A stretch of 64,000 nt of DNA from an uncultured Acidobacteriota bacterium (GCA_937870635.1 CALMZP010000167.1:40917-104916); one strand, 5' to 3'. Positions 1,939-63,990 are shown, counted from the stretch's first letter. Notes: generated by a model not told the origin, from the sequence alone. Program-made: numbers and translations.

Positions 1939-2003
1939 AATTTTGGATTTTGGATTTTAGATTTTGGATTGCGTCTCGAATCCAAAATCGCAAATCCAAG
2001 AAT
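1939..2003. terminator. Imperfect palindrome of tandem heptamers (ATTTTGG)n / (CCAAAAT)n between convergent stop codons; probable bidirectional terminator
   Basis: Left arm is aattttggattttggattttagattttggatt and right arm is aatccaaaatcgcaaatccaagaat. It lies between the TAA stop at 1932-1934 and the minus-strand stop at 2006-2008. Confidence 0.5.
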
Positions 2004-2005
2004 AT

Positions 2006-2416
2006 TCAGGCGCTTTTCAGCTCCACTTCCACCGCGCGCAGCAGCCCGTCCAGGTCCACCGGTTTCCGATAGACCGCGCGCGCGAGGCCTCCGTACCGCT
2101 GCTCGATCGTTTCGCTCGGCAGGTCGTCAGCCGGCGCGCCGGTCACGACGATGATCGCCGGCGGGTCTCCCTGAAAGTTCAGCGACGGATCTGAGATCAT
2201 CGCCCGCAGAGAGTCGAGAAAATCGGCGCCGCTCATCTTCGGCATCATCATGTCGAGGATCACGACTTGAAAGCGGCGTGTGAGGATGTGATGGAGCGCG
2301 TCGACACCGTCCCGCGCGCCCTCGACGCATACCCGGCCGCGATCGCCGAGGTGCTCGATGAGGGCTTTCCGGATCGCTTCGTCGTCCTCGACCACAAGAA
2401 CCTGGCTTCGGGCCAT
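2006..2416 (-). CDS. Single-domain response regulator (CheY-like receiver)
   Basis: MARSQVLVVEDDEAIRKAL ... FQVVILDMMMPKMSGADFL; ATG start (cat) at 2414-2416. Confidence 0.8.
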   Translation of the reverse strand: MARSQVLVVEDDEAIRKALIEHLGDRGRVCVEGARDGVDALHHILTRRFQVVILDMMMPKMSGADFLDSLRAMISDPSLNFQGDPPAIIVVTGAPADDLPSETIEQRYGGLARAVYRKPVDLDGLLRAVEVELKSA

Positions 2417-2448
2417 CTGCTCCGTTCGTCGAGCACGAAATCGGCCAG

Positions 2449-2973
2449 CTACCAGCCCTTCTCTTTTCGAAGCGAAGTGATGTGGGCGACGTGATGGCGG
2501 CCGTGCCACGCGTACATCGCGATGAGCCAATCCACCGTGACCGCGCCGTGCTCAGGGTGCCGGAACGTGCGCTCGAACGCCGCAGCGTCGAGTGATCGGA
2601 GCAGGCGGACCCAACGGTCGTGAACGGACTCGAGGAGCATCAGTGACGTTTCGATCGGGGTATCGCGGCTGTCGGCGAGATCGGCCCACGCTGACTGGTC
2701 GTACGGCTTGATCGTCGGCTCTCGCTCAGTCAGAGCGAGTTTGAGGCGGGTGTATCCATTGAGGTGGCTGTCCGGCACGTGATGAACCACCTGCCGGACC
2801 GTCCAGCCACCTTCCCGATACGGAGTATTCAGCTGCGGCTCGCTGAGTCCCCGCACCGCGTCGCGCATCCTCGCCGGGGCGGCTGCGATCTGTTCGATCA
2901 TCGCGAGCCGCTCGTCTGGATTCAGCTTCGAGCGGCTCTCAAATTTCCCGACGGGGTAGCGCAGGTCTGTCAT
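2449..2973 (-). CDS. DinB_2 / YfiT-like metal-dependent hydrolase family protein
   Basis: MTDLRYPVGKF ... VVHHVPDSHLNGYTRL ... AWHGRHHVAHI, with His motifs typical of the DinB/YfiT fold. ATG at 2973. Confidence 0.65.
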   Translation of the reverse strand: MTDLRYPVGKFESRSKLNPDERLAMIEQIAAAPARMRDAVRGLSEPQLNTPYREGGWTVRQVVHHVPDSHLNGYTRLKLALTEREPTIKPYDQSAWADLADSRDTPIETSLMLLESVHDRWVRLLRSLDAAAFERTFRHPEHGAVTVDWLIAMYAWHGRHHVAHITSLRKEKGW

Positions 2974-2981
2974 TTCGGACC

Positions 2982-3851
2982 CTACGGTTTGACCAGGCCC
3001 TGGTAGGTATCGGGGCGGCGGTCGCGAAAGAATTGCCAGGTGTTTCGAACTTCGCGAATCTTGTCGAGATCGAGCTCTGCCGTGACCAGCGCATCCTTGT
3101 CGCGTGCGGCCATCGCCTCGAACTGACCTCGCGGGTCGCAGAAGTAGCTCTGCCCGTAGAACTCGCCGATGTTCCACGGAGCTTCATATCCGACACGGTT
3201 GATCGCGCCGACGAAGTATCCGTTCGCAACCGCGTGCGCCGGCTGTTCGAGCTTCCACAGATATTCGGACAGCCCCGCAACGGTGGCCGATGGGTTGAAT
3301 ACGATCTCAGCCCCATTGAGGCCGAGCTCGCGCGCACCTTCCGGGAAGTGGCGGTCATAACAGATGTACACGCCGACCCGGGCGTAGCGCGTGTTGAATA
3401 CCGGGTAGCCCAGGTTACCCGGGCGGAAGTAATACTTTTCCCAGAACCCCGGCGCAACGTGGGGGATGTGATTCTTCCGGTATTTGCCGAGGTAGGTGCC
3501 GTCGGCGTCGATGACGGCCGCGGTGTTGTAGTAGACGCCGGTCGCCTCCTCTTCATAGAGGGGAACGACGATGACCATGCTGTAGCGCTTCGCATAGTCC
3601 TGCATGAGTTTCGTCGTCGGCCCATCGGGGATGCGCTCGACGGATTCGTACCAGCGCGGATTCTGTTCCGCACAGAAGTAGGGGCCGGTGAAGATCTCCT
3701 GCATGCAGAGGAGCTGGACGCCGGCCCTACCGGCCTCGTCAACGTACTTCAGCGTGCGCTCGATCTGAGCCTCACGGATTTTCTCGAGTGGCTCGTCGAC
3801 GCTCGCGGCGAGCGAGGTCTGAATGAGGCCGGCTTTCACGATTCGGGACAT
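2982..3851 (-). CDS. Beta-ureidopropionase / N-carbamoyl-beta-alanine amidohydrolase (carbon-nitrogen hydrolase superfamily)
   Basis: Nitrilase-superfamily fold with the catalytic Cys in VGVYICYDRHFPE, which resembles the ICYGRHHP motif of beta-ureidopropionases. Genomic context is the pyrimidine catabolic gene set. Confidence 0.8.
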   Translation of the reverse strand: MSRIVKAGLIQTSLAASVDEPLEKIREAQIERTLKYVDEAGRAGVQLLCMQEIFTGPYFCAEQNPRWYESVERIPDGPTTKLMQDYAKRYSMVIVVPLYEEEATGVYYNTAAVIDADGTYLGKYRKNHIPHVAPGFWEKYYFRPGNLGYPVFNTRYARVGVYICYDRHFPEGARELGLNGAEIVFNPSATVAGLSEYLWKLEQPAHAVANGYFVGAINRVGYEAPWNIGEFYGQSYFCDPRGQFEAMAARDKDALVTAELDLDKIREVRNTWQFFRDRRPDTYQGLVKP

Positions 3852-3991
3852 GGATTCTCCTTGGATGGGATGGGGGGACATTATCTGTCAAGTGCTGTCA
3901 TCTCGGAGTGCGGCAGCAAGCCGCACTCCATGACGCAAGTATTTGTATCTGTAACCTAACTTCCTACGACGCCGCTCGTAGTTACTCAGGA

Positions 3992-5011
3992 ATGACATTG
4001 CCAGGGTCGGTCCCGGCCGGGACTCGGGTCGGCCGTTACGAAATCGTGTCGCTCCTCGGACGCGGCGGTATGGGCGAGGTCTACAGCGCCACCGATTCGA
4101 ATCTCGGCCGGCAGGTCGCGCTGAAGATTCTTCCCAGCCACCGCACCTCCGATCTCGATCGCGTGGCGCGCTTCGTCCGGGAAGCACGAGCCTCCTCGGC
4201 GCTCAACCATCCTTCGATCGTCGCCGTTCACGACGCCGGATCCGAGGGAGATGTGCACTACCTGGCGATGGAGCTGATCGACGGCGAACCGTTGAGCATC
4301 TGGATGAAGAAGTCGCGTGGTCTGTCGCGAATCATCGAGCTGATGGCGCAGGTCGCCGAAGGCCTCGCTCGCGCGCACGCTCATGGAATCGTTCATCGCG
4401 ATCTCAAGCCGGACAACTCATCCATCTCGATTCGCCGCTGGACGAGATTCCCGAAAAGGTCGGCGGATTATCCGGCCTCGCCAGACGACTTCGAATGGAT
4501 CTCACTGGTGACCGCAAATCACGGGGTCACGACGGGCACGACGAGCGGCGAACGAGCGGCCGCGTACGGCGCGGCGATCCGCACGCAGCTCGGCGCAAAG
4601 AACGGGTTCCCGGTGTTCAGTCCATACAATCCGGACTGGGCGCCGAAGTATCATACGAACTTCCTATCCGCGTACGCGGTACTCGGCACCTATGTCAATC
4701 TCCTTTACGAGAACGTCGATTATCCGCTCGAGCAGACGGGCTGGGTGTTCGCGCACGAGATGGGCCACGTTTTCTGGGCGTGTGACGAGTATCAGGCCCA
4801 GTGCCAGCGGTTCATGGATCCGCCATGTTCGAACTGCTATGGCACCTTCAGCGGCGATCCTGAAGCCGCCGAGAACGGGCCCGGTCCGCGAGAGGCCTCC
4901 ATGAACTGGAATTGTGAATTGTGCACGCCGAACGGACCGGATGCATGCTTGATGCATGCAACCACGTCAAGCAACTGGAGCAACCGTAGTACGTGCATAC
5001 CCGGCGAATGA
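3992..5011 (+). pseudogene. Chimeric ORF made of a Ser/Thr protein kinase N-lobe (truncated immediately after HRDLKPDN) fused in-frame to a lower-GC Cys-rich segment with an HEXXH zinc-metalloprotease motif (HEMGH)
   Basis: The kinase subdomains are present (GRGGMGEVY, VALK, HRDLKPDN) but the DFG/APE half is missing. From about 4435 the GC content drops and the sequence reads FAHEMGHVFWACDEYQAQCQ... The kinase C-terminal remnants appear separately at 5765-6092. Confidence 0.55.
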
Positions 5012-5039
5012 TCGGATGGCCGGAATAGTGGAGGAGCAA

Positions 5040-5759
5040 ATGCGAACCACTCTTGCCCTCCTCGCCGTACTCATCGCCGTCCCGCTCTTCGGACAGGGTG
5101 TTCCTCCGAGCGAGCGAATCCTGGTGCCAATCTTTGCCCAGCCAGGTCCCGGTGCATTCGGCTCCTTCTGGCAATCGGAACTCTGGGACCACAACGATAC
5201 CGATGAGCCAGTCCAGACTGGCTTAGGTCCAGTCTTACCGCCGAAGACCACGATCGGACCGCTGGTCGGGGACCGGGCCGTCGGCACGCCAGGGTTAGTC
5301 ATGTTCACGCGTCGAGAACACGAGGCGCACCTCCATTTCAGTGTCCGGATTCGGGATTTATCACGCCAGGCGCAGACATGGGGTACAGAGATTCCGGTGG
5401 TACGCGAGTCAGAGTTCTTTACCGGCAGAATGCAGCTCCTCGCCGTCCCCACAGACGGCCGTTTTCGTACGATGCTCCGCGTTTACGAGTTCCTCGGATT
5501 TGGCCTGTCGCCGGGGGCGGTGCGGGTCCGCTTCTACAGGACCGGCGTCTCGCCAGACGTCCTTCTGCACGAGCAGACAGTCTCACTGGCAGGCACGGGC
5601 GTCCTCGCATACGCGCAGCTCGCCTCATTGCCGCCTGAGGTATCTGATGCAGCACCAGTTCGCATCGAGATCGAGCCGCTCAAAGAGATGTGGTTCTGGG
5701 CGTTCGTCAGTATCACCAACAACCAAACCCAGCACGTCACGATCATCACGCCCCAGTAG
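5040..5759 (+). CDS. Secreted hypothetical protein (signal peptide MRTTLALLAVLIAVPLFGQG)
   Basis: Good RBS (ggaggag) followed by an ATG at 5040. The GC content is lower than in the flanks. No recognisable domain. Confidence 0.55.
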   Translation: MRTTLALLAVLIAVPLFGQGVPPSERILVPIFAQPGPGAFGSFWQSELWDHNDTDEPVQTGLGPVLPPKTTIGPLVGDRAVGTPGLVMFTRREHEAHLHFSVRIRDLSRQAQTWGTEIPVVRESEFFTGRMQLLAVPTDGRFRTMLRVYEFLGFGLSPGAVRVRFYRTGVSPDVLLHEQTVSLAGTGVLAYAQLASLPPEVSDAAPVRIEIEPLKEMWFWAFVSITNNQTQHVTIITPQ

Positions 5760-5764
5760 AGCCG

Positions 5765-6092
5765 CCGTCAGGCTTCGGCCCTCACAGCCCGCAGGAGAAG
5801 TCAGCGCGGATGGGGTTCTCGCCCGACCGTAACTATCTCTACTACTCGTCTGCTCTCCGCAGCGAGCCGAACATCTTCCACGTCTTCCAGATGCCGCTGC
5901 TCGGTGGCAGGCCTCGCCGGGTCGCGACCGACACCGAGTCGTGGTTCTCGTTGTCGCCCGACGGAGCGTCGATCGTGTTTGCGTGCCAGCGGTGTGATCT
6001 TTTCGTACGACGTCTCCAGCGACGGGCGAACGCTCGTGATGGCGCGCGGCGAGCCAACCAGCGACGCGGTGCTGATCAGCAACTGGCGCTAG
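5765..6092 (+). pseudogene. Frameshifted remnant of the TolB/PD40 beta-propeller C-terminus of the disrupted Ser/Thr kinase
   Basis: Two frames translate to PD40-like blades: FSPDRNYLYYSS...SLSPDGASIVFA (frame 2) and GVIFSYDVSSDGRTLVMARGEPTSDAVLISNWR (frame 3). There is no start codon, and the fragment shares the reading frame of the 3992 kinase N-lobe. Confidence 0.5.
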
Positions 6093-6448
6093 GTTGCGGT
6101 TTTCGTCGCCGGGAGATCGCGTGAAACGCGCAGCAGCATCAGCGTCTTGCCGATCGTGAACTCGTCCCCGGTGCGAAGTTCCACGGGCGACGTGATGCGG
6201 ACCGTGCCCAGGTAAGAGCCGTTCTTGCTGCCGAGATCTTCGAGGGTGACGCGGTCGCCGTCGACGATGATCCGCGCATGATGGCGTGATACTTCGGGAG
6301 CGTTGATGCAGATGGTGTCGTTCGGATCGCGGCCGATCGGGTTCACGCCCTGGCGGAGAAAGATCCCCTCGCGCCCGACGATCACCACGAACTGCGCGGT
6401 GACGTCGGCCACGCCCGTGGCGTCGAAGGCGTAGCCGAATCGGTGCAC
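6089..6448 (-). CDS. FHA (forkhead-associated) domain protein
   Basis: IGRDPNDTICINAPEVSRHHARIIVDGDRVTLEDLGSKNGSYL, a canonical FHA core. Confidence 0.7.
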   Translation of the reverse strand: MHRFGYAFDATGVADVTAQFVVIVGREGIFLRQGVNPIGRDPNDTICINAPEVSRHHARIIVDGDRVTLEDLGSKNGSYLGTVRITSPVELRTGDEFTIGKTLMLLRVSRDLPATKTAT

Positions 6449-6711
6449 GGTGCGGATGATGGCGTGATCCTCGTCGCCCAGGGCCTGTCGAATCTCGGAG
6501 ACGAGATTGTGGAGGTTGCCCTGCTCGACGATGGTATCGGGCCAGAGCAGTTCACCGTCATCCTCTCGGCGCTTCCAGGCCTTCGGCCGGCGATCACCAG
6601 GAGGCGAAACGCCTCGCCCTTCCTGTTGTCGTCGTCACACCGTCGGCCGTGATCGCAGCGATGCCGGACGGCACGGCTCGCACGATGATCGCAGGACCGC
6701 ACTGGTGGCGC

Positions 6712-8097
<1,386 letters not shown>

Positions 8098-8115
8098 GCT
8101 CACTCTCCGTAAGCG

Positions 8116-9084
8116 GTGACTATAACGCCGGTTCTGTCAGACAATGCGCCGCGCATGTCCGTGATCCTTCCCGAATATCACCCGGTGGGCCAGCTGCCCG
8201 CGCAGGACATCCTCGCCCTCGTGACGTTCGGCGGTCCGGTGATCCGTACGGACGTGCTCAGCTTCAACGTGCCGATCCCCCAGATCGGAGACCCCGTCGC
8301 GGAGGTGTGGCGGACGAAGGGCAAAGTCCTGCGTGAGACGCGTGGCGGAATCGAGATTGCGCGTACGGATGACGTCCTGTTCGGTACGGTCCGGGCCACG
8401 GGCCGCTCCGATGAAGCCACATTCGACATTTACGACTCGCTGGTCGAGGTTTGCCGCGGATCGGGCTACCCGAATCTCTGGCGGATGTGGAATCACGTCG
8501 GCGGAATCAACGAGGATGAAGAATGCCTCGAGCGCTACAAGCGGTTCTCATCCGGCCGTCATGAGGCGCTGACCGCTCATGGATATTCGAAAGACCGTTT
8601 TCCGGCAGCGAGCGCCGTAGGTATGAGCGAGCCGGGACTGCTCGTGTACTTCATCGCCGGACGCCAGGAGGGCGTGCAGGCGGAGAATCCCCGCCAGGTC
8701 AGCGCATACGACTATCCGCCGCAATACGGGCCGCGAAGTCCGTCGTTCTCGCGCGCGACCGTCGTCCACGGCGGCCTGATTTTCGTTTCCGGCACGGCGA
8801 GCGTCGTCGGCCATGAGACGAAGCACAGCGGCGATGCGGCCCGCCAGCTGGAGGAGACGATCGAAAATCTCGACGTCACCCTCTCCTCGGCGGCTGCGCG
8901 TGTGGGGCGCACTGCGTCGGCGCGCGACCTCACGACCACGAAGATCTATCTCCGTGCAGGGGTCGACCATCGCGAGCTCGAGCCGCGCCTTCGAGAGGTC
9001 TTCCGGTCGAGGATGGTCCTCCAGTCGGACATCTGCCGCCGCGAGCTCCTCCTGGAGATCGAGGGCGTCGCCGCGATCGCCTAG
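8116..9084 (+). CDS. Hypothetical protein with a C-terminal RidA/YjgF-like domain; possibly FkbO/Hyg5-type chorismatase family
   Basis: The C-terminal ATVVHGGLIFVSGTASVVGHETKHSGDAARQLEETIENL resembles RidA. A roughly 320-aa length with an N-terminal extension is typical of FkbO/Hyg5 chorismatases. Start is uncertain: GTG at 8116 or ATG at 8155. Confidence 0.45.
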   Translation: MTITPVLSDNAPRMSVILPEYHPVGQLPAQDILALVTFGGPVIRTDVLSFNVPIPQIGDPVAEVWRTKGKVLRETRGGIEIARTDDVLFGTVRATGRSDEATFDIYDSLVEVCRGSGYPNLWRMWNHVGGINEDEECLERYKRFSSGRHEALTAHGYSKDRFPAASAVGMSEPGLLVYFIAGRQEGVQAENPRQVSAYDYPPQYGPRSPSFSRATVVHGGLIFVSGTASVVGHETKHSGDAARQLEETIENLDVTLSSAAARVGRTASARDLTTTKIYLRAGVDHRELEPRLREVFRSRMVLQSDICRRELLLEIEGVAAIA

Positions 9085-9437
9085 CGATCCCGCTGCGGGC
9101 GGTTGCGCGCCGCGATCTGGCCCGCCGCGGTGAGTGAAAGAGAGAGAGGTTGCCCTGCTTTCAGCGGCTGAAACGCTCTCCATTCACGATCCTGCCCCTG
9201 CCATCGGTAGGTCAGGACGAGATGCTCGCTGGGCGGGACCGACAGCGCGCGCGATTCGCCGTTGCGCAGCGTCCCGATCTGCACCGGTCCGCCAGCCGTC
9301 GCGAGAACCGCGTTCTCCATCGGCGCTCCCGACTGGTTCATCAGTGTGACCCGCGCGGGAATCCTTCCGGCGTCCCACGTGACGTAAAGCAGGCCGGCTA
9401 CGCCGGCCGCGAGGAACCACAGCGCCTTCTTTGGCAA
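9081..9437 (-). CDS. Small membrane-anchored hypothetical protein (probable TTG start)
   Basis: High GC3 codon bias. N-terminal hydrophobic helix PKKALWFLAAGVAGLLYV followed by a soluble domain. It fills the 355-bp gap between convergent genes. Confidence 0.4.
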   Translation of the reverse strand: MPKKALWFLAAGVAGLLYVTWDAGRIPARVTLMNQSGAPMENAVLATAGGPVQIGTLRNGESRALSVPPSEHLVLTYRWQGQDREWRAFQPLKAGQPLSLSLTAAGQIAARNRPQRDR

Positions 9438-9439
9438 GG

Positions 9440-10744
9440 TCAGACCGTTGCGAACGCGGCGTCGAGAGCCGAGACCAGCTCGTCGATGTCCGCCTTCGAC
9501 GCGATGAGCGGAGGACCAAGCCGGATCACATTGCCGAACAGACCACCCTTGCCGATGAGCACACCACGCCGGCGTGTCTCCTCGAACACCTTGAGCACGG
9601 CCTTCGGATGGGGTTCCTTCGTCTTGCGGTCCACGACGCACTCGATCGCCTGCATGAGACCCATGCCGCGCACGTCCCCGATCACGGGGTATTTTTCCTT
9701 CAGAAGCTCGAGCCGCTCGCGAAGATAGCCGCCGACCACCGCGGCGTTGCGCGGAAGCTCGTGCTCTTCCATATAGCGGATCGTGGCCACGGCCGCGGCG
9801 GAGGTCACGGGATTGCCGCCGAACGTTGAGAAGGTGAGCATGGGAAACGCCTTCGAGATCTCATCGGTCGTGATCGTCGCGCCGATGGGGGAGCCGTTGG
9901 CCATTCCCTTCGCGAACGTCATGACGTCGGGCTCGACGTCCCAGTGCTCGATTCCGCACCACTTGTCGCCCGTCCGTCCCCATCCGGTCTGCACCTCATC
10001 CGCGATGAAGATCCCGCCGTAGCGACTGATGATGTCCTTGACCAGGCCGAAGTACTCCTTCGGGGGGACGATGAAGCCGCCGACTCCGAGGATCGGCTCC
10101 GCGATGAAGCCCGCAATCTTGCCGCTCGTCGTCGTCTGAATCACCTCTTCGACGTCCTGCGCGCATTTGACGCCGCAGTCGGGATACGACTGGCCGAACG
10201 GGCAGCGGTAACAGTACGGCGCGATGGCGTGATGGATGCCGGGGACCGCCGTGCCGCCGAGGCGCCAGGTCGAGTGTCCTGCGGCGCTCATGGCGAGCAT
10301 CGTGCGGCCGTGATACGCGTGGCGCAGCGCGATGATCTCCTGGCGCCCGGTGTAGAGCCGCGCCAGAAGGATGGCTGTCTCGTCAGCTTCCGATCCGCTG
10401 TTCGTGAAGAACGTCCGGCTCAGATCGCCGGGTGTCACTTCGGCGACCTTCGCGGCGAGCTCCGCCGCCGGCTTGTTGATGTAGAGGGTCGACGTGTGGG
10501 TGACCTTGTCGACCTGCTCGTGAATGGCGCGGTTGACCGCCGGGTTGGCGTGTCCGATCGATACGGTGAGGACCCCGCCGAAGCAATCGAGGTAACGATT
10601 GCCCTGCTCGTCCCACACGTGCATCCCTTCGCCGCGCTCGATGACGAGCGGCGTCTCGTAGTACGTCGCCGCGGCCGGCCAGGCGTGCCGCTTGTACTGC
10701 GCGGTCACGTCCGATTTCGTTTTCGGGTCGAGTACGTCGGTCAT
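9440..10744 (-). CDS. Class-III (omega) aminotransferase, probable beta-alanine:pyruvate transaminase
   Basis: PLP fold-type I class III motifs (FIAEPILGVGGFIVPP, DEVQTGWGRTG, MTFAKGMANG with the PLP lysine). ATG at 10744 with a ggag RBS. Confidence 0.85.
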   Translation of the reverse strand: MTDVLDPKTKSDVTAQYKRHAWPAAATYYETPLVIERGEGMHVWDEQGNRYLDCFGGVLTVSIGHANPAVNRAIHEQVDKVTHTSTLYINKPAAELAAKVAEVTPGDLSRTFFTNSGSEADETAILLARLYTGRQEIIALRHAYHGRTMLAMSAAGHSTWRLGGTAVPGIHHAIAPYCYRCPFGQSYPDCGVKCAQDVEEVIQTTTSGKIAGFIAEPILGVGGFIVPPKEYFGLVKDIISRYGGIFIADEVQTGWGRTGDKWCGIEHWDVEPDVMTFAKGMANGSPIGATITTDEISKAFPMLTFSTFGGNPVTSAAAVATIRYMEEHELPRNAAVVGGYLRERLELLKEKYPVIGDVRGMGLMQAIECVVDRKTKEPHPKAVLKVFEETRRRGVLIGKGGLFGNVIRLGPPLIASKADIDELVSALDAAFATV

Positions 10745-10762
10745 GATTTCTCCAATTTCGCC

Positions 10763-11908: not shown

Positions 11909-12074
11909 CGGAAGTCCTCCGTCAGTGGGAAACAATGACTATACCGCTGATCACCCGGGGGACGGGAATGGTGAATGCTGAGTGGTGAGTGTTGAATGGT
12001 GAACCCAGGGGATGAAAGCGTTCCGCTTCACCACTGACCATTCACCATTCCACATTCACCATTCCCGTCTCTTC

Positions 12075-53697: not shown

Positions 53698-53800
53698 CTG
53701 TCATCCGGAGCGTGAGCGAGGGACCGGGGGGTTGGGTGGCACGAAGCACGATGTTTCGCGCCACCCGCCCCCCAGGTCCCTCGCTACGCTCGGGATGACA
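53698..53800. repeat. Long near-perfect hairpin (about 43-bp arms, 20-nt loop) 3' of both convergent genes
   Basis: cctgtcatccggagcgtgagcgagggaccggggggttgggtggc / loop acgaagcacgatgtttcgcg / ccacccgccccccaggtccctcgctacgctcgggatgacag. Confidence 0.8.
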
Positions 53801-56410: not shown

Positions 56411-56526
56411 AGAGAGGGAGGGTCACGTCTGCACTTGGCACTTTCTCCACGAACGGTAGATCGGCGAAGTCGTGGGGAATCTACCGCTCGTGGAGAAAGT
56501 GCCAAGTGCAGACGTGACCCTCCTCC
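56411..56526. repeat. Long near-perfect hairpin (about 45-bp arms, 20-nt loop) in the divergent promoter region between the two PPase genes
   Basis: gagggagggtcacgtctgcacttggcactttctccacgaacggtagat / cggcgaagtcgtggggaatc / taccgctcgtggagaaagtgccaagtgcagacgtgaccctcctccc (one mismatch). Confidence 0.85.
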
Positions 56527-56566: not shown

Positions 56567-58636
56567 ATGTCGAACTCGATCTATCTGATTCCGCTGGCCG
56601 GGGTCCTCGCCCTGATCTTTGCCCTGGTCAGGAGTTCCTGGATCAGCAGGCAGGACGCCGGGACGCCCGAGATGAAAGTCATCGCCGGCCACATCCGCGA
56701 AGGGGCGATGGCATTCCTCACCCGCGAATATCGCGTCCTGGCGGTATTCGTCGTCGTGGTCTCGGTCCTCCTCGCCTGGGCGAACGCCGCGCGCGCCGAA
56801 AGCTCCTGGCTGATCGGCGTCTCCGTGGCCACCGGCGCGTTCTGCTCGGCCCTGGCCGGCTGGTTCGGAATGAGCGTGGCGACGCATGCAAACGTGCGCA
56901 CGGCGGCAGCCGCGCGGACCAGCATGAACGGCGCGCTGCGCCTCGCATTCGCCGGCGGCGCCGTGATGGGCTTTGCCGTCGTCGGCCTCGGACTACTCGG
57001 ACTGTCGCTTCTGTACATCCTCTACGAGCGCTTGTTCGCCTCCGCCGATCCGCAGGCGACGATGATCCGCAACATCAACGTGCTCTCCGGCTTCTCGTTC
57101 GGGGCGAGCTCCATCGCGCTCTTCGCGAGAGTCGGCGGCGGCATTTACACGAAGGCGGCCGACGTCGGCGCTGACCTCGTCGGCAAGCTCGAGGCGGGAA
57201 TCCCCGAAGACGATCCACGCAACCCGGCCGTCATCGCAGACAACGTCGGCGACAACGTCGGCGACGTCGCCGGCATGGGCGCCGATCTCTTCGAGTCCTA
57301 CGTCGGCTCCATCGTCGGCACCCTCGTCCTCGGCATGGTGGCGACGCAGGTTGGCGGTTCCAGCTATACACCGATGCTCGTGCTCTTTCCGCTCGTGCTC
57401 GCGGCGGTCGGCATCGTGCTCTCGCTCGTGGGTACGACTCTGGTCCGGATGAAAGAGGACGGTGATCCCGGCCGGGCGCTGCAGGCGGGCCCGATCGTCG
57501 CCGCCGTTCTGACTCTCATCGCCATCTGGTTCATCGCGCAGCGCATGCTGCCGGGGACCTACCTGCTCGAAGGGAGAGAGTTCAACGCCACGGGCGTCTT
57601 TTTCGCTACCGTCGCCGGACTCGTCGCCGGCGTCCTGATCGGACTGATCACCGAGTACTACACGTCCGAGGCGCGTGGTCCGGCGCGCGGGATCGCGCGG
57701 GACTCGCTGACGGGCGCGGCGACGAACATCATCAGCGGGCTGGCGGTAGGCATGAGGTCGACCGCGCTTCCGATCGTCGTCCTCGTCGTGGCGATCATCG
57801 TCTCGTATCGCCAGGCGGGCCTGTACGGGATCGCGATCGCCGCGCTGGGCATGTTGCTCACCACGGGAATCCAGCTCGCGGTCGATGCCTACGGCCCGAT
57901 CGCAGACAACGCCGGCGGCATCGCGGAGATGAGCCATCTCGGCAAGGAAGTGCGGGCACGGACGGACAAGCTCGACGCCGTCGGTAACACGACCGCCGCG
58001 ATCGGGAAAGGGTTCGCGATCGGGTCAGCGGCACTCACTGCGCTGGCGCTCTTCGCGGCCTTCAAGGCGACCGTCGGTCTGAAAGTGATCGACCTCAGCG
58101 ACCCCGATGTCATGGGAGGCCTCTTCCTTGGCGGCATGATGCCGTTCCTCTTCTCGGCGATGTCCATGAAGGCGGTGGGACGCGCGGCGTTCAAGATGAT
58201 CGAAGAGGTACGCCGCCAGTTCAAGGAAATACCCGGACTGATGGAGGGGACAGGGAAGGCCGACTACGCGCGTTGCGTCGACATCTCCACGCAGGCCGCG
58301 ATCAAGGAGATGGTCATCCCGGGATTGCTCGCCGTCGTCGCTCCGGTCGTGGTTGGCCTGTACAGCGTTCCTGCGCTCGGCGGTCTGCTGGCGGGCGTCA
58401 CTGTGACGGGCGTGCTGATGGCGATCTTCATGGCCAACGCCGGCGGCGCCTGGGACAACGCGAAGAAGCACATCGAGGCGGGAGCGCACGGCGGGAAGGG
58501 CTCCGATGCTCATCGTGCCGCGGTGGTCGGTGACACGGTCGGCGATCCGTTCAAGGACACATCCGGACCGAGCCTGAACATCCTCATCAAGCTGATGTCG
58601 GTGGTGGCGCTGATCGTGGCGCCGCTGCTGATTTAG
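56567..58636 (+). CDS. hppA: Membrane-bound pyrophosphatase, K+-dependent subfamily (Ala in [10 protein letters not shown])
   Basis: [24 protein letters not shown] and [21 protein letters not shown] motifs. GGAGA RBS followed by an ATG at 56567. Confidence 0.9.
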
Positions 58637-58639
58637 CTC

Positions 58640-58800
58640 CAGTTTTATCCTGAAGAGATCCCAGTTCATCCTGAGGAGCTCGAGTTTATCCTGAGGAGCG
58701 AAGCGACGAAGGATCTCCCGGTGCACCGGCAGCGCCTGAAGATTGAGCGCTGCAAGTGCACCGGAGATCCTTCGCTTCGCTCAGGATAAACTTCCGAAAC
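58640..58800. terminator. Composite element: three direct 14-mers (TT[T/C]ATCCTGA[A/G]GAG), a GC-rich hairpin, then one inverted 14-mer
   Basis: ttttatcctgaagag / ttcatcctgaggag / tttatcctgaggag ... gcgaagcgacgaaggatctcccggtgcac...gtgcaccggagatccttcgcttcgc tcaggataaa. Confidence 0.5.
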
Positions 58801-59531: not shown

Positions 59532-60182
59532 TCAGGCTGCGTTCGCGCGGACGTTGATCTCGACCCGGCGGTTCAGCTGGCGGCCGCTGGCGCTGGCGTT
59601 CGACGCCCGGGGCTGCGATTCGCCGTAGCCGATCGCGTCGATGCGCGAGCCGCGAACGCCGAGGTTCTGCAGGTAGCGCTCAACCGAGGCGGCGCGACGT
59701 TCCGACAGGCGCTGGTTGTACGAGGCCGATCCGGTCGAGTCCGCATGCCCCTCGACCACAATCGTGGTGTCCGGGTAGTTCTGGAACACTTCCGCCATCT
59801 CCCGCAGCGCGGAGCGCGACGCCGACCGGAGAGCAGTGGAGTTGTAGTCAAAGAGCACTTCGTTGCGGACGGTGACCTTCAGCTCATCTTCGTCGACGCG
59901 CGTGACGTCGAGGCCTTCGATCTGCCGGAGCTCGCGCTCCTGCTTGTCCATCATCGCTCCGACGATGGCGCCGGTGGCCACACCGACGACGCCGCCGATT
60001 GCCGCGCCGCGCTTGGCGTTGCCACTCCCTCGGTTGTTGCCGAGGACGCCGCCGACGATCGCGCCGGCCACACCGCCGATGACGGCGCCCTTTCGGGTCT
60101 TGTCCCGCTCGGTGGCCACATCGGCGAAGGCAGGGGTGACTGCCAGGAGAGCGATCAACAGTGTTGCGAAGAGCTTGTTCAT
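59532..60182 (-). CDS. OmpA-family protein with a Gly-zipper (paralog of the previous gene)
   Basis: Same architecture; OmpA_C motifs FDYNSTALRS...NRRVEI. Confidence 0.8.
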   Translation of the reverse strand: MNKLFATLLIALLAVTPAFADVATERDKTRKGAVIGGVAGAIVGGVLGNNRGSGNAKRGAAIGGVVGVATGAIVGAMMDKQERELRQIEGLDVTRVDEDELKVTVRNEVLFDYNSTALRSASRSALREMAEVFQNYPDTTIVVEGHADSTGSASYNQRLSERRAASVERYLQNLGVRGSRIDAIGYGESQPRASNASASGRQLNRRVEINVRANAA

Positions 60183-60303
60183 GGTTTCCTCCGTTTGAAC
60201 CTGCCTCCACTATCGCAACCGGAATGCCACTGTCACAATAACTATGGACAGAAGGCCCGGGCTGGGAGCCGGCTGGGCGGGCGAGAGGTGTACCATTCGC
60301 GCC

Positions 60304-61467
60304 ATGGCGGCCGGTGTACCACTGATTGATGTCATCCATAAGTTACTGGAATCAAGCGACTTGACGTTCCATGACTTCATGGAGATGGCGCTCTATCACC
60401 CCGAACACGGGTACTACGCCCGGGCCGAAAACCCGGTCGGGAAGGAGGGTGATTACGTCACTTCGCCCAGTCTTTCGCCCCTCTTTTCGGATACGCTGAG
60501 CCTGCTGGTTACCGAATTTGCGAGCCGTGGCGGCGACGAGGTGTCCACGGTTGTGGACATTGGCTGCGGGGATGGCTCGCTCATCCATTCTTTATATGAC
60601 GCGGTTGGAGCGCGGGCGATCTCGCCCGCGACCGAGATGGCGGGCGAGATCGCCCGCCCTCCACGTTTCTACGGGGTCGACCGCTCTCTGAGTCGGGTCA
60701 AGAGAGGGGATGGCGTCCAATTTGCCGGAAGCCTGGCCGAGGTTCCGCGGGAGGGTCAGCATCTCCTGATCGCGAACGAGCTCTTTGACGCTCTTCCGGT
60801 CCATCGCCTGGTCCAGCGTGGCGAGCATCTTCACGAACTGTGGGTGACGGAGCGCAATGGCGAGCTCGACTGGAGCGAGCATGAGGCCCCTGCGGCATTC
60901 GAAGACTATTTCGCGGCGAGAGACATCGAACTGGCCGACGGCCAGTTCGTCGACGTCTCGCTCGAGTGGGAATCGCAATTCGAGGAGATGTGCGGTTTCT
61001 TACGTCGGGGCGTGATTGTCGTCTTTGATTACGGATACCCTGAAAAGAGACTCTTCGACCCGCGGGTTCGGCGCTTCGGCACTTCAGCGTCTTATCGACA
61101 GCAGCGCGTCTCTCGAGATCTTCTGGTCGATCCTGGCCTTCAGGACCTGACAGCACACATCAATTTCACGGATCTGATCCGCGCGGGCGAAAGGAAGGGG
61201 TTACGGACAGTCTTCTTCGATCGGCAGGCGAAGTTCCTTCTCGCCCTGGGCGGCGCGGAGCACGATCTGCTGCGGCCGATCGACCAGGGCATGGATCAGA
61301 GGAAGATCGCCTCGCTCGAAGGCGGACTGGCCTTTCTGCAGCAGCGCGAGGATGCGAAGCGGCTTCTGCTGCCGGACGGGATTGGAGAGGACATCCGGGT
61401 CCTCGTGCAGATCAAAGACCTCGACGATTCGGGGTGGTCTTTTCAAAGACCGCTCTTCAATCGTTGA
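60304..61467 (+). CDS. MidA / NDUFAF7-like SAM-dependent methyltransferase (DUF185) encoded immediately upstream of nuoA
   Basis: FHDFMEMALYHPEHGYY, DFVTSPxLSPLF-like and IANELFDALPVHR motifs. Contains an in-frame REP-derived insertion (AVGARAISPATEMAGEIARPP). Confidence 0.8.
   Translation: MAAGVPLIDVIHKLLESSDLTFHDFMEMALYHPEHGYYARAENPVGKEGDYVTSPSLSPLFSDTLSLLVTEFASRGGDEVSTVVDIGCGDGSLIHSLYDAVGARAISPATEMAGEIARPPRFYGVDRSLSRVKRGDGVQFAGSLAEVPREGQHLLIANELFDALPVHRLVQRGEHLHELWVTERNGELDWSEHEAPAAFEDYFAARDIELADGQFVDVSLEWESQFEEMCGFLRRGVIVVFDYGYPEKRLFDPRVRRFGTSASYRQQRVSRDLLVDPGLQDLTAHINFTDLIRAGERKGLRTVFFDRQAKFLLALGGAEHDLLRPIDQGMDQRKIASLEGGLAFLQQREDAKRLLLPDGIGEDIRVLVQIKDLDDSGWSFQRPLFNR
60604..60664. repeat. 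Paired REP-like palindromes located inside the MidA coding sequence, in-frame
   Basis: gttggagcgcgggcgatctcgcccgcg ... ggcgggcgagatcgcccgccctccac. Confidence 0.8.
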
Positions 61468-61525
61468 CTCCTGAGACGTCACGTTTACAATTACGGGCGG
61501 TCTCGACGATTCACAGCGAGTAAAG

Positions 61526-61885
61526 ATGGCGAACTACTCAGTATTGCTGGTGGCTGCGCTTGTTGTGCTCTCCGTTCCGATTCTCACCCTTTTCATCATC
61601 GTGCCCCTCGTGAGCGCGTATCGAGCGAACAAGGTGAAACTCGAACCGTACGAGTGCGGCGTACCGGCCACGTCTCTTGCCTTCGACCACCGCTTCTCGG
61701 TGCGTTACTTCCTGATCGCTGTACTCTTCATCATCTTCGACGTCGAGACGGTCTTTCTCTTCCCGTGGGCGATCCGGTTCAAACAGCTCGGCTGGTTCGG
61801 GGCTGTCGAGATGGCAATCTTTCTTGCGATTCTCCTGATCGGTTACTTCTACGCGTGGAAGAGGAAGGTTCTTTCATGGGTCTGA
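61526..61885 (+). CDS. nuoA: NADH-quinone oxidoreductase subunit A
   Basis: 3-TM subunit of about 120 aa with a conserved YECG motif (EPYECGVP). Confidence 0.9.
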
Positions 61886-62937
61886 TCGAGAATCGCTTCG
61901 ACTCGAACGTCCTCACCACCTCCGTCGACAAGATTTTCAACTGGGCCCGCAAGTCATCGCTCTGGCCGATGCAGTTCGGCCTCGCCTGCTGCGCGATCGA
62001 GATGATGGCCGTCCTCGATCCGCGTCACGACATGGCTCGGTTCGGCGCGGAGGTCTTCCGCGCCACGCCGCGCCAGGCGGATCTCATGATCGTCTCCGGC
62101 ACGGTCACGGAGAAGATGGCGCCGATCGTCCGCCGGCTGTGGGATCAGATGCCCGAGCCGAAATGGGTGATCGCCATGGGTTCGTGCGCGACTTGCGGCG
62201 GCCCTTACGATACCTACGCCGTCACGCAGGGCGTCGACCGCCTGATCCCTGTCGATGTCTATATCCCCGGTTGCCCGCCGCGCCCCGAGGCTCTCATCTG
62301 GGGGCTGATGGAGCTGCAGAAGAAGATCGAGAAGATGCACATCCTCCGCAAAGGAGGAGAGGCGTACGACTTCGCGCGCGCCGCGGTGCGCGATTCGCTC
62401 CGGCCGCAGCACGAAGGTCCCGCCCTTCGCGCCGAGCAGGCCGCCGCGCAGCTCAAGCCCGCACCGGTATCGGGCGTGAAAAGAGAGGCGAAGCCGAGTG
62501 GGGCGCGGGCGACCCCGCCAGCGCTTTCCGCTCCGGCCCCAACAACCGCGGGCGAGGTCGCCCGCGCTCCACAGGATGCTGCCACTTCCACGGCTGTCCT
62601 GGAAGCCGATGTGCAGCAGGCGGCGGCGCCGGAAGTCGTGCCGGGCGACACGACCGATGGTGCCTCTCCCGCTGTCCCTTTTCACAAGGAAGATCTCACC
62701 CTGCCCGAGCGCATGCAGATGGCCGAGCAGATGGGCGGCAAGTTCGAGACGAAGCTCTTCGCGGCGATGGCGCAGACCGATTGCGGTGCCTGCGGCTGGG
62801 ACTGCGAAGGGTACGCGAACGCCCTCGCTACGGGCGAGACGAAAGACATCTCTCTCTGCGTCCCCGGCGAAGCAGAGACGCTCGATGAGCTGAAGAAGCT
62901 GATGGAACAGGCAGGGAAGGAGTACGAAGGGGCCTGA
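61876..62937 (+). CDS. nuoB: NADH-quinone oxidoreductase subunit B (N2 cluster motifs CCAIEM...GSCATCGG...PGCPP) with a C-terminal extension of about 170 aa: an Ala/Pro-rich linker plus a Cys-rich putative Fe-S domain
   Basis: Canonical NuoB core up to about residue 185. The tail then runs ...[10 protein letters not shown]...[54 protein letters not shown] at 61876 overlaps the nuoA stop. Confidence 0.85.
62498..62572. repeat. Paired (left copy degenerate) REP-like palindromes inside the nuoB linker, in-frame
   Basis: gtggggcgcgggcgaccccgccagcgct ... aaccgcgggcgaggtcgcccgcgctccac, encoding [25 protein letters not shown]. Confidence 0.7.
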
Positions 62938-63926
62938 TGTCAGAGACCACCCCCCCTCCAGCCGCGCCGGCCGCGGCACCCGCCGGCCGCACGGCAAGCG
63001 ACATCAAGCGCGACCCGCTTGTTCTCGTCGCCGTATCGCGCGACTGGGAGGCCGTCACCGACGCGAAGGAGTTCGCGAACGAGATCACTCTCATCGTCGA
63101 TCGCGCTCGCATCGTCTCCGTCTGCCGTGCCTTCAAGGACGAGGGGTTCAGCTATCTCGTCGATCTGTCCGGCGTCGATTACTCGAAGTACCCCGGACAT
63201 GCCGGCCCGCGGTTCGGCGTGGTCTACACCCTCTATTCATTCAACGCCAACAAGCGCGTCAGGCTCCGCACCTTCACCGACGAGAACACCCCCATCCCGT
63301 CCGTGACGGACGTCTGGAAGACCGCGAACTGGCACGAGCGCGAGACCTTCGACATGCTGGGCATCCAGTTCGAAGGTCATCCGAATCTCGAGCGGATCCT
63401 CATGTGGGAAGGCTTCAACGGGCATCCGCTCCGTAAAGACTTTCCGATCCGCGGCATCGACACCGGCGCGCGCATCTATCCCGAGGTCTTCCCGCCCGGC
63501 GGAGGACCGAAACCGGGATCGACGGGCAAGGACGCGAAGGACGTCAATATCTTCCAGGGCGAATGGAACACCTACGGCACCTGGCCTGCCGCGCAGATCG
63601 CCGGACAGCGCGCCGCCGCGAAGACGCAACAGCCCGCAGCGCCGGAGCTCGCCGCGGTTGTCGCGGAAACGGCGAAGCCGACCCAGGAAGCGCCGTGGCA
63701 CAACCCCGATCTTCAGCTGCCCGAGCGGATGAAGATGGCCGAAAAGGGGAGCCTCAAAGACAAGCTCTTCGCGGCGATGGCCCAGACCGACTGCACCGCC
63801 TGCGGCTGGGACTGCGAAGGCTACGCAAACGCGATCGCCACCGGCGAAACCAAAGATCTGACGCTCTGCGTACCGGGCGAACAGGAAACGGAGGACATGC
63901 TGAAGAAGCTGATGTCTGCGGGCTGA
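62937..63926 (+). CDS. nuoC: NADH-quinone oxidoreductase subunit C (30 kDa) with a C-terminal extension of about 130 aa ending in the same Cys-rich putative Fe-S domain
   Basis: NuoC core (…WHERETFDMLGIQFEGHPNLERIL…). The tail runs ...LPERMKMAEK...[55 protein letters not shown] overlap with the nuoB stop. Confidence 0.85.
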   Translation: MSETTPPPAAPAAAPAGRTASDIKRDPLVLVAVSRDWEAVTDAKEFANEITLIVDRARIVSVCRAFKDEGFSYLVDLSGVDYSKYPGHAGPRFGVVYTLYSFNANKRVRLRTFTDENTPIPSVTDVWKTANWHERETFDMLGIQFEGHPNLERILMWEGFNGHPLRKDFPIRGIDTGARIYPEVFPPGGGPKPGSTGKDAKDVNIFQGEWNTYGTWPAAQIAGQRAAAKTQQPAAPELAAVVAETAKPTQEAPWHNPDLQLPERMKMAEKGSLKDKLFAAMAQTDCTACGWDCEGYANAIATGETKDLTLCVPGEQETEDMLKKLMSAG

Positions 63927-63990
63927 CGGTTAACGGTTAACGGTTAACGGTCGAAGGCGACCGTTGAACGCTGACCGGTGATCGTTCATG
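63927..63990. terminator. Heptamer-repeat hairpin (ACGGTTA)x3 ... imperfect complement, 3' of nuoC
   Basis: gacggttaacggttaacggttaacggtcgaaggcgaccgttgaacgctgaccggtgatcgttcatg. Confidence 0.45.

Follow-up and report, generated by a model that had tools for sequence, protein, structure and literature searches.

The window analyzed here is a 64,000-nt stretch of DNA from a genome of the Thermoanaerobaculia (Acidobacteriota). It carries seven hairpins with arms of 3-5 tandem heptamers, two one-armed heptamer arrays and one related hairpin built from 8-9-nt units. All palindromes listed in a preliminary description of this DNA were recovered with TRF and an inverted-repeat finder, and two elements overlooked there were added (11961-12069 and 51484-51576). 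Nine arrays or pairs in the 64 kb all lie between Pfam-supported genes, with coding overlap restricted to stop-proximal codons; they are structured repeats of gene boundaries, as proposed there. Hairpins are listed below without a strand, and folding energies (dG, in kcal/mol) and z-scores of the heptamer hairpins refer to the + strand unless stated otherwise.

Three of the hairpins are built from the TTTTGGA unit, and the Pfam annotations confirm that all three sit between convergent stop codons. The first (1940-2003; left arm 1940-1970, ATTTTGG x4.4 with one G>A unit; loop 1971-1978; right arm 1979-2003) occupies the 71-nt spacer between the stops of a histidine kinase gene (1934) and a response-regulator gene (2006), and folds with a dG of -25.7 (z -4.0). 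In the second (34552-34614; left arm 34552-34583, loop 34584-34589, right arm 34590-34614; dG -32.9, z -7.3) the first unit is overlapped by the TGA stop (34551-34553) of a GNAT/ADP-forming acetyl-CoA-synthetase gene, and the other flank is a methyltransferase stop at 34620. The third (41274-41370; dG -53.5, z -9.1) has a left arm of 5.1 units (41274-41309), a core that contains a small stem of its own (41310-41336) and a right arm of AAAATCC/AAAATCT units (41337-41370). The overlap reported for its YwiC-like neighbor holds, with the stop codon (41362-41364) and the last three codons lying within the right arm.

The other hairpins use different units. The GAATGGT hairpin (11961-12069; 43-nt arms, 84% complementary, 23-nt core; dG -71.5, z -9.1) lies between a permease stop (12075) and a TATAGT -10-like box upstream of a DHO-dehydrogenase-like gene (start 11935). 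In the GGACCTT hairpin (13609-13689; 32-nt arms, 97% complementary, 17-nt loop; dG -74.5, z -11.1), 9 nt separate the left arm from a -10-like box, TACAAT, that belongs to the permease gene. The GGACCCT hairpin (26444-26533; 26-nt arms, 96% complementary, 38-nt core with its own stem; dG -73.8, z -7.7) is 5 nt past the stop of a nitroreductase-like gene (26539) and precedes the start of the next gene (26387), 57 nt away. The left arm of the ACGGTTA hairpin (63926-63987), with 3.7 perfect units, begins with the A of the TGA that terminates a nuoC-like gene, and the degenerate right arm ends at an ATG (63988); the hairpin's fold reaches significance only for + strand RNA (dG -37.9, z -3.7, compared with z -1.1 for the - strand). 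This hairpin appears to lie inside an operon. A comparable rpoB-rpoC-like case occurs in locus L108, and in both cases the flanking genes are likely co-transcribed. The related hairpin (51484-51576; dG -71.6, z -8.2) has arms of tandem 8-9-nt units (CGCGGAGA, CGCAGAGGGA) and separates two convergent genes whose stops are at 51471 and 51586.

The identical 19-mer GAAGGTCGAAGGTCGAATC that had been grouped with these palindromes is indeed present at 30073 and 40231, but both copies belong to one-armed arrays on the + strand and neither forms a hairpin. The GAAGGTC array at 30073-30091 (2.4 units) is part of a dispersed element of ~30 nt (GAAGGTCGAAGGTCGAATCGCCCCGAAGC); it adjoins a REP unit (30030-30052) and is immediately 3' of the stop of a minus-strand gene (30108). 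The GAAGGYC array at 40224-40249 (3.4 units) ends 10 nt ahead of an extended -10-like sequence (TGTACGAT) upstream of a deoxyhypusine-synthase (DHS)-like gene.

Across the heptamer hairpins, stems span 21-43 bp (71% A+T in the TTTTGGA stems) and loops about 8-44 nt, and + strand dG values range from -25.7 to -74.5 kcal/mol (z -3.7 to -11.1). All seven are more stable as + strand RNA, irrespective of gene strand. Copies per array range from 2.4 to 5.4 at all sites (TRF and exact-period scan). The distance from stop codon to hairpin start is 0-11 nt, and of the window's 11 convergent junctions that could be defined with confidence, at least 8 bear a long inverted repeat (the three TTTTGGA hairpins, three REP pairs and the repeats at 51484 and 53715).

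The period of seven is in strong excess in this DNA. Counting exact arrays that span at least 2p+3 nt, where p is the period, we found 13 in the window for period 7, 8 for period 4, 2 for period 12, 1 for period 6 and none for periods 5 and 8-11. In 567 kb comprising the window and Acidobacteriota loci fetched via protein homology, there were 39 period-7 arrays, at most 12 for any other period and none in shuffled sequence; in 115 loci from other phyla, the counts were 363 and at most 35. The same arrays are present in independent assemblies (L117, L118, L201-L204 and L206), and the heptamer arrays are real DNA. Short-read contigs frequently terminate within them. A search of the whole window against Rfam gave zero matches at the gathering score.

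Heptamer arrays have been described in cyanobacteria (STRR), Xanthomonas, Beggiatoaceae and, as (GATAGRA)n, in Chloroflexus (PMC4692102, PMC4679880, PMC6749651). The sources cited for the cyanobacterial STRR heptamers and for heptameric long simple-sequence repeats (LSSRs) are Mazel 1990 and Mrazek 2007 (in PMC4692102, PMC4679880); the heptamer excess and the idea of slippage are likewise credited to Mrazek 2007 in PMC4679880. The features of the STRR/heptameric-LSSR class are found in the window, namely tandem 7-nt units, a period-7 excess, intergenic dispersal and variation in unit number, and the window elements belong to this already described class. The suggestion of a lineage-specific class does not survive, given that the same architecture has been published for Xanthomonas (PMC4692102) and that (TTTTGGA)n arrays are spread over at least five phyla (Cyanobacteria, Chloroflexota, Acidobacteriota, Verrucomicrobiota and Planctomycetota). 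The cyanobacterial STRRs and long SSRs also resemble the window in having several unit families per genome, and the TTTTGGA unit itself occurs in many Nostocales; however, single or compound direct repeats prevail in cyanobacteria, whereas hairpin pairs, among the loci examined, come mainly from Acidobacteriota, Planctomycetota and Chloroflexota.

The closest published counterpart in arrangement is the GGGAATC repeat of Xanthomonas, with 70-75 convergent heptamer pairs per genome that are able to form stem-loops (Rehm et al. 2015, PMC4692102). Its modal length is four units, its length varies between related species while the single or paired type is usually retained, 83% of its sites are common to species, and it formed a G-quadruplex (G4) in vitro (PMC4692102). 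Like these pairs, the window elements are dispersed, intergenic tandem 7-nt units with a mode of about four, and seven window pairs have the same unit on opposite strands, with the G-rich strands converging in all skewed units. Xanthomonas uses one G3-containing unit family and mostly keeps its sites between species, whereas the window has many families with GG at most, and its sites and units turn over even at 97% identity. By analogy with the switch put forward for the GGGAATC repeats, each arm could supply four G-tracts to a predicted G4 that competes with the hairpin. The modal length of about four units, in TTTTGGA arrays as in Xanthomonas (PMC4692102), and a G-rich arm lying 5' on both strands would fit such a switch. 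Nevertheless, we regard it as highly improbable: none of the window units has a tract of three or more Gs, TTTTGGA, GAATGGT and ACGGTTA offer GG only, GGACCTT and GGACCCT lack G skew, and the predicted structures are limited to weak two-tetrad forms with 5-nt loops.

Comparison with relatives shows that the elements appear, resize and are replaced quickly. The preliminary description had proposed that arm length could vary by slipped-strand mispairing, and whole-unit changes of arm length do occur: at 11961-12069, L117 (~90% nucleotide identity) and L118 carry the hairpin with one arm shorter by one GAATGGT unit. At the same permease 3' end, L119 is empty and L120 has a one-armed CACCCGG array. 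The hairpin at 1940-2003 shares an identical left arm with four other assemblies and is missing from the 96%-identical relative L205; in an 80% relative the spacer is 19 nt. The arms of the 13609-13689 hairpin are the same in L117, where they enclose a loop of 83-87 nt with a REP pair in it; the hairpin is missing from L119 and L120. The 97% relative L206 has (GGACCTT)4 arms with 112 nt between them at the 26444-26533 site, where the window has GGACCCT x2.7; it also carries the GAAGGTCGAAGGTCGAATCGCCCCGAAGC element of 30073 within a hairpin loop and, after its acetyl-CoA-synthetase gene at the 34552-34614 junction, a (CGCAGAGG)n array of the CGCGGAGA/CGCAGAGGGA unit family (the spacer is 5 nt in L207 and 15 nt in L208). 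In the place of the 40224-40249 array, L122, L127 and L129 have other hairpins of 7-8-nt units. Downstream of the DHS gene, L131, L149, L171, L179 and L196 have canonical terminators, and in L177 arms of tandem units enclose an A-tract/stem/T-tract terminator. Another unit or no repeat was found at orthologous sites (permease 3' end, histidine kinase/response regulator, acetyl-CoA-synthetase/methyltransferase, 26448, 30073 and DHS 3' end). The hairpins are very young, fast-changing insertions that lack conservation even between relatives of 80-97% identity. Because relatives without a hairpin exist at the same junctions, the elements are dispensable there.

One hairpin marks the end of a deletion. 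The right arm at 13609-13689 had been described as reaching the start codon (ATG) of a gene resembling dioxygenases, with a possible role as a translation attenuator. It abuts a deletion junction instead: from 13690 onward the window aligns with the middle of the YceI gene of L117, and four genes of L117, L119 and L120 are missing, which places a deletion of ~3.3 kb at 13689/13690. A second deletion, of 210 nt, joins the YceI C-terminus to the dioxygenase C-terminus. The downstream ORF is a gene-fusion remnant, and the ATG next to the arm is thus an accident of the junction.

This turnover bears on the possibility that the arrays and their pairing are a neutral or selfish by-product, functionless and tolerated until a deletion removes them, which would arise only when replication slips and templates are switched in spacers that are not translated. 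The repeat-free 5-19-nt spacers of 80% relatives, the replacement of units between 97% relatives, the unequal arms in L117 and the deletion located at an arm end all agree with such an origin, and the + strand stability of all seven hairpins fits a G/T mutational skew better than selection on RNA. The order within the elements argues against it. Both arms of a pair always have the same unit, and every skewed unit in the window has its G-rich arm on the 5' side; across all loci 17 pairs are G-rich-first and 3 C-rich-first, with TTTTGGA GGATTTT-first in 12 out of 12. Array length is peaked, and placement is polar with respect to gene ends (see below). We consider this by-product scenario rather unlikely, although worth keeping in mind.

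A further possibility is that spacers are invaded by miniature mobile elements of the MITE, REP or REPIN type, with the heptamer arrays as terminal inverted repeats. The same unit does recur at multiple sites of a genome, complete hairpins of ~60 nt stand where relatives have spacers of 5-19 nt, the relative L119 has a Y1-transposase gene, and a genuine REP family (GTGGAGCCGCGGGCGATCTCGCCCGCGG) is present in the window, a pair of which can occupy a heptamer hairpin loop, as in L117. Like the heptamer hairpins, REP/BIME/REPIN elements are intergenic palindromes, often paired and with a preference for 3' ends; in E. coli, REPs are mRNA 3' stabilizers. REPs, however, have a conserved sequence recognized by RAYT transposases, while the heptamer hairpins have only their architecture in common: no REP/REPIN-type conserved palindrome occurs across the heptamer copies, whose units differ and whose loops are unrelated even for the same unit. 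Comparison of empty with filled sites showed no target-site duplications. Dozens of units would require dozens of recognition specificities, copy number changes by single units, and one-armed forms are common. Mobility of this kind seems very unlikely.

The TTTTGGA copies had further been read as bidirectional terminators, for which their position speaks: they share with intrinsic (Rho-independent, including bidirectional) terminators a stable hairpin right after the stops, between convergent genes. The heptamer hairpins nevertheless do not resemble canonical intrinsic terminators. They have no following U-tract (the sequence 3' of the stems is not T-rich), the U-rich arm of the TTTTGGA hairpins is the 5' arm, the combination of a short G+C-rich stem and a loop of 3-8 nt is absent, and 80% relatives cope with 5-19-nt spacers. 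A consensus scan for a hairpin plus T-run over positions 1-60000, a range ending before the ACGGTTA hairpin (in 60001-64000), flagged none of the six heptamer hairpins covered, nor the hairpin at 51484, whereas it picked up canonical REP-based terminators (REP units at 25299 and 45692) as well as a hairpin at 59501.

Our preferred explanation, to which we give a probability of about one half, is that slippage-driven heptamer arrays became paired into long hairpins at transcription-unit boundaries and act at most as dispensable barriers to RNA decay or transcription. The hairpins are long simple-sequence repeats of 7-nt units whose arrangement as convergent pairs allows each pair to form a 21-43-bp hairpin, in a habitat of intergenic spacers that otherwise measure 5-20 nt. 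Slipped-strand mispairing of whole units would alter arm length, copying or repair across the palindrome may maintain the likeness of the arms, and secondary insertions, to which the nested REP and other elements point, may enlarge the loops. As RNA, the elements would be long perfect duplexes directly past stop codons that could stop 3' exonucleases, hinder RNA polymerase or make it pause, or be cut by RNase III, so that any transcript-boundary role would be weak and dispensable. As DNA, they would be fragile palindromes, as the deletion breakpoint and the contig ends within the arrays suggest.

Free slippage does not explain the length peak and phase, the stop/start polarity or the recurrence of the same unit within one genome (TTTTGGA at three sites, GAAGGTC at two, and GGACCTT at two within the species group). 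The hairpin-free junctions of relatives and the two cases between genes likely to be co-transcribed (the ACGGTTA hairpin and L108) also speak against our preferred explanation. In many phyla, TTTTGGA arrays show a sharp length peak at 31-33 nt (mode ~32) with a fixed phase, and the modal element is G(ATTTTGG)4ATT. Among 122 TTTTGGA arrays, with gene ends outside the window assigned heuristically from ORFs, those in the AAAATCC sense have a start codon at most 40 nt downstream in 38 cases and follow a stop in 10, whereas those in the GGATTTT sense follow a stop in 22 and precede a start in 7. Other skewed heptamers have the same gene-end bias, and many arrays abut genuine N-termini without a Shine-Dalgarno sequence. 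Tentatively, and in a reading that we judge unlikely, the arrays may be discrete polar cis-elements of ~32 nt (4.5 units) common to phyla, (GGAUUUU)4-type past stops and (AAAAUCC)4-type at starts in place of the Shine-Dalgarno sequence. If so, a conserved reader of the 7-nt register, or directed making or spreading of arrays, is implied, and the window hairpins are two such elements face to face.

In a specific version, which we find doubtful and clearly unlikely, a trans-acting factor (an RNA-binding protein, S1, the ribosome or RNA polymerase) reads the elements in the 7-nt register; G/U-rich arrays would mark RNA past stops, A/C-rich arrays would be SD-less leaders before starts, and the hairpin would possibly be self-masking. 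The polarity of the 122 arrays, the like bias of other heptamers, the abutted N-termini and the modal element speak for this. So does a precedent in marine Beggiatoaceae, where TAACTGA repeats lie a few nt upstream of starts lacking Shine-Dalgarno sequences, with a patchy distribution over several phyla, and where binding of S1, Csp or CsrA was proposed (MacGregor 2015, PMC4679880). The likeness extends to the arrays just before such starts and to the patchiness; TAACTGA repeats are almost all direct (one indirect repeat in 170 sets, PMC4679880), whereas the window elements are paired and mostly at 3' ends. Against a reader, many units per genome would require many factors or very loose recognition, a candidate factor was not found, the window's three TTTTGGA hairpins are all at convergent 3' ends, genes local to the hairpins have normal GGAGG sites, and the gene ends in other loci are heuristic. 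Variable heptads with a measurable effect are known from the ctxAB promoter of Vibrio cholerae, where the copy number of TTTTGAT correlates with promoter activity (bioRxiv 10.1101/2021.05.14.444153). Although that array is a single locus bound by ToxR/H-NS, neither palindromic nor genome-wide, it resembles the window elements as an AT-rich heptamer array of variable copy number upstream of a promoter.

All elements of the preliminary description were recovered in place; they are real and slightly more numerous than it had them. On either side of each hairpin, Tandem Repeats Finder placed period-7 arrays. The inverted-repeat finder returned arms of 32 nt (97% complementary) for the GGACCTT hairpin (13609-13640/13658-13689), 33 nt (94%) and 27 nt (96%) for two TTTTGGA hairpins (41274-41306/41337-41369 and 34553-34579/34588-34614, respectively), and 26 nt (96%) for the GGACCCT hairpin (26444-26469/26508-26533). 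Two hairpins had been overlooked: one of GAATGGT units (11961-12069), its 43-nt arms 84% complementary, and a related one (51484-51576) with arms built of tandem 8-9-nt units (CGCGGAGA). The 19-mer shared by 30073 and 40231 is indeed identical at both sites; both are one-armed arrays, not hairpins.

Period 7 is far above chance. The window holds 13 exact arrays of period 7, one of period 6 and none of periods 5 or 8-11. Across 567 kb, comprising the window and loci obtained via protein homology (and hence not selected for repeats), we counted 39 period-7 arrays; no other period exceeded 12, and a shuffled control gave none. Short two-copy arrays (GAATTGT, ACTGTGG and CAGAGAGA) also occur at 4909-4923, 16996-17010 and 37355-37400; these may represent emerging or decaying members, or match by chance.

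The genes flanking the hairpins are supported by Pfam. As had been proposed, the three TTTTGGA hairpins lie between convergent stops, and each occupies the entire spacer: between a hybrid histidine kinase and a response regulator, between a GNAT/ADP-forming acetyl-CoA synthetase and a methyltransferase, and between deoxyhypusine synthase and a YwiC-like gene. At 34552 the first TTTTGGA unit includes the TGA stop, and the overlap described for the YwiC-like gene is confirmed, the right arm holding its stop (41362) and last three codons. The GAATGGT and GGACCCT hairpins each follow a minus-strand gene, 3-11 nt past its stop, and precede the -10-like box or ribosome-binding site of the next gene. 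The ACGGTTA hairpin runs from the stop of a nuoC-like gene to an ATG (63988), and is therefore probably within an operon. The GGACCTT hairpin does sit in a divergent region. Upstream of the deoxyhypusine-synthase start, by 10-40 nt, is a conserved extended -10-like box (TGTACGAT or TATACGAT; window 40250-40298 and the upstream regions of the homologous loci L121-L129). Tandem-unit arrays stop 3-10 nt upstream of this box. In several relatives the box lies so near the ATG that a leaderless mRNA is possible.

The heptamer arrays, arranged as convergent pairs, fold into long duplexes. As plus-strand RNA, the seven hairpins have folding energies of -25.7 to -74.5 kcal/mol (z -3.7 to -11.1), and the fold of the ACGGTTA element is significant on that strand only. 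U-tracts are absent from the hairpins, and a hairpin-plus-T-run scan of 1-60000 reported neither the heptamer hairpins of that range nor the one at 51484-51576. It did return two units of the separate REP palindromic family (25299 and 45692) and one hairpin elsewhere (59501). Judged on these features, the bidirectional terminator role once suggested does not fit the canonical model. An Rfam scan of the whole window matched no family. As candidate identities, intrinsic terminator, REP element, MITE and Rfam family each failed their tests. A broader boundary role nevertheless seems plausible, because a long inverted repeat of some kind (a heptamer hairpin, REP pair, 8-9-mer hairpin or unique palindrome) is present at no fewer than 8 of the 11 convergent junctions definable in the window, and relatives have terminators at the same place. 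Any such role must be dispensable, since close relatives lack any hairpin there. Two long unique palindromes stand out: one at 56417-56523, in a divergent promoter region, whose 45-nt arms are 98% complementary, and one at 53715-53785, between convergent genes, with a stem of ~40 bp and -91.7 kcal/mol.

In all seven hairpins the plus-strand RNA folds better than the minus-strand RNA, regardless of the strand of the flanking genes, and cumulative GC skew climbs over the entire window. Together these suggest that one replication strand has a G/T mutational bias. Within the A+T-rich arms, variant units give -10-like hexamers (TTTTAGA yields TAGATT and AAAATCT yields TAAAAT) at 41332-41361, 1957-1963 and 34556-34562; a promoter scan reported one of them.

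Comparison with relatives showed that, over very short evolutionary times, the elements appear, disappear and give way to others, and that their size changes in steps of whole units. The permease at 12075-13565 shares 94% identity with a protein from a Thermoanaerobaculia MAG (contig L117, GCA_035699425.1), whose DNA is ~90% identical to, and collinear with, window 2980-15778. In L117 and the homologous locus L118 the GAATGGT hairpin has one arm one unit shorter and a shorter core, which supports the earlier idea of slippage. Past the permease stop, relatives at ~80% identity have either no repeat, the stop directly adjoining a conserved TATAGT box (L119), or a one-armed CACCCGG array (L120). 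The array at the kinase/regulator junction is common to four assemblies with an identical kinase; it is missing from a 96% relative (L205), and an 80% relative (P0123) has a 19-nt spacer there, as taken from gene coordinates. Four Logan contigs, compared as same-strain samples, all stop at one point inside the array. At the synthetase/methyltransferase junction we found a (CGCAGAGG)n array in L206, a relative at 97% protein identity spanning the equivalent of window 25290-34553, and spacers of 5 nt in L207 and 15 nt (CTTTTCAGTTTTCAA) in L208. Element sites are spacers only a few nucleotides long in relatives. L206 also has (GGACCTT)4 arms enclosing ~112 nt with the GAAGGTC element at the 26448 site, and a GTGCTTG/CCCAGCA hairpin at the 30073 site.

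Past the deoxyhypusine-synthase gene, 80 metagenomic relatives show varied solutions, including canonical terminators and arrays or hairpins of GAGTGCT, CACAGAGA, GAGTTCG, CAGGAGT and GTGAATGA. In one relative (L177) an A-tract/stem/T-tract terminator is enclosed by tandem-unit arms. Two others carry arrays (TGGTTGC/GCAACCA, and GCGCAACC, heptamer or octamer; L123 3975-4085 and L122 3763-3840) that appear to lie within the signal-peptide and linker coding region of the following gene.

One element lies at the edge of a deletion. The GGACCTT hairpin of L117 has the same arms as that of the window and a loop of 83-87 nt with a REP pair inside. Directly 3' of the right arm, window 13690-13831 aligns inside the L117 YceI gene; ~3.3 kb encoding an amidohydrolase, a sigma-70 factor, a FecR-like gene and the 5' part of YceI is absent from the window, and these genes are found in L117, L119 and L120 alike. 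A second deletion, of 210 nt, joins the YceI remainder to the C-terminus of a dioxygenase. The ORF described as dioxygenase-like (13689-14174, versus L117 5829-9929) consists of the two C-termini. Given both deletions, the ATG at the arm end is, on the alignment, best read as a junction accident and the ORF as a fusion remnant; synteny with the three relatives rules out the translation attenuator proposed at this site. An assembly artefact is unlikely because the hairpins are present in independent assemblies; for the 13689 junction itself a slight chance of a mis-join persists, given that more than one locus carries arrays of the same unit. Short-read assemblies often terminate inside heptamer arrays (L001 1-30, the ends of L201-L204 and of L206), so these repeats fragment metagenome assemblies of this lineage. 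In practice, arrays break short-read assemblies and can yield misleading ORF starts and ends in annotation.

The elements had been regarded as lineage specific, a view that fails on a wider scan. Requiring 3.5 TTTTGGA units and using one genome per species, we retrieved at least 115 stretches; the matches listed include Nostocales and other Cyanobacteria, Chloroflexota, Acidobacteriota, Verrucomicrobiota, Planctomycetota and others, a spread to be read qualitatively, and the window's own genome is not among them. In the matched loci listed, period-7 arrays of many other units are abundant (363, versus at most 35 for other periods). A mobile-element reading was rejected after comparing the loops and flanks of TTTTGGA hairpins, both within the window and between phyla: shared sequence was confined to the arms, and no target duplications were seen.

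Three regularities emerged among the matches listed. The first is chirality: all inverted TTTTGGA pairs (three in the window and nine elsewhere) read 5'-(GGATTTT)n...(AAAATCC)n-3', and over all pairs, window included, the G-rich arm leads 17 times and the C-rich arm 3 times. This rule is inapplicable to GGACCTT and GGACCCT, whose units are not G-skewed. The second is polarity, with gene ends set by a simple ORF rule. Of 122 TTTTGGA arrays, those in GGATTTT sense lie within 40 nt past a stop in 22 cases and before a start in 7; those in AAAATCC sense lie before a start in 38 and past a stop in 10. Many directly adjoin recognisable N-termini without a Shine-Dalgarno site. Other skewed heptamers show the same polarity (40 versus 10 and 24 versus 9, n = 159). 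The third is length: 77 of 120 TTTTGGA arrays measure 31-33 nt and none 25-28 nt, though 25 nt is detectable, and the phase is fixed as G(ATTTTGG)4ATT.

Slipped-strand mispairing could set arm length, copying or repair across the palindrome would keep the arms alike, and secondary insertions might enlarge the loops. The resulting RNA duplexes could impede exonucleases or polymerase and would be substrates of RNase III, an enzyme specific for duplexes of ~20 bp or more. Arm order, stop/start polarity and the sharp length mode are not predicted by simple slippage, and a purely neutral origin fails on the same three points. Besides pure neutrality, the rival explanations are recognition of the 7-nt register by a trans-acting factor, mobility and G4 switching.

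To our knowledge, heptamer arrays are among the commonest unexplained bacterial repeats, with no established function or mechanism. Because this class is already known, though unexplained, the elements are an Acidobacteriota addition to it, with many unit families, and not a new kind. The nearest published match is the Xanthomonas GGGAATC repeat set (PMC4692102), in which each genome has 70-75 convergent pairs, four units is the commonest length and lengths differ from species to species. Cyanobacterial STRR, the TAACTGA repeats of Beggiatoaceae (PMC4679880) and the (GATAGRA)n arrays of Chloroflexus (PMC6749651) fall within this same broad class. Mrazek 2007, as cited in PMC4692102 and PMC4679880, already raised heptamer excess and polymerase slippage. 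Literature searches found nothing relevant for the TTTTGGA array sequence and nothing specific for heptamer repeats in Acidobacteria. Acidobacteriota (Thermoanaerobaculia) thus become a new phylum-level host, with direct comparative evidence that hairpins arise in 5-20-nt spacers, as well as single-unit changes, unit swaps between near-identical relatives and a possible location at deletion breakpoints. Their interest rests on very fast turnover and on the unexplained rules of chirality, polarity and length.

The window also has other dispersed repeats. A REP-like 23-mer family (GTGGAGCCGCGGGCGATCTCGCCCGCGG), distinct from the heptamer elements, which we rejected as members, occurs mainly as inverted pairs between convergent genes (14210-14298, 25296-25377, 45617-45697, 60606-60663 and 62498-62572), with a single unit at 30030-30052. 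Single units have a 3' T-run and score as canonical terminators. Adjoining the dioxygenase gene of L119 is a gene for a 328-aa Y1-transposase (PF01797; 4770-5756), which may be the REP-associated transposase (RAYT) partner of this family. Another repeat, with CTCAGGATGAC / ATCCTGAGGAGC, is found at window 58635-58790 and in L129, L135, L144, L205 and L206; in the window it comprises 3.2 tandem 20-mers and an inverted copy past the stop at 58636.
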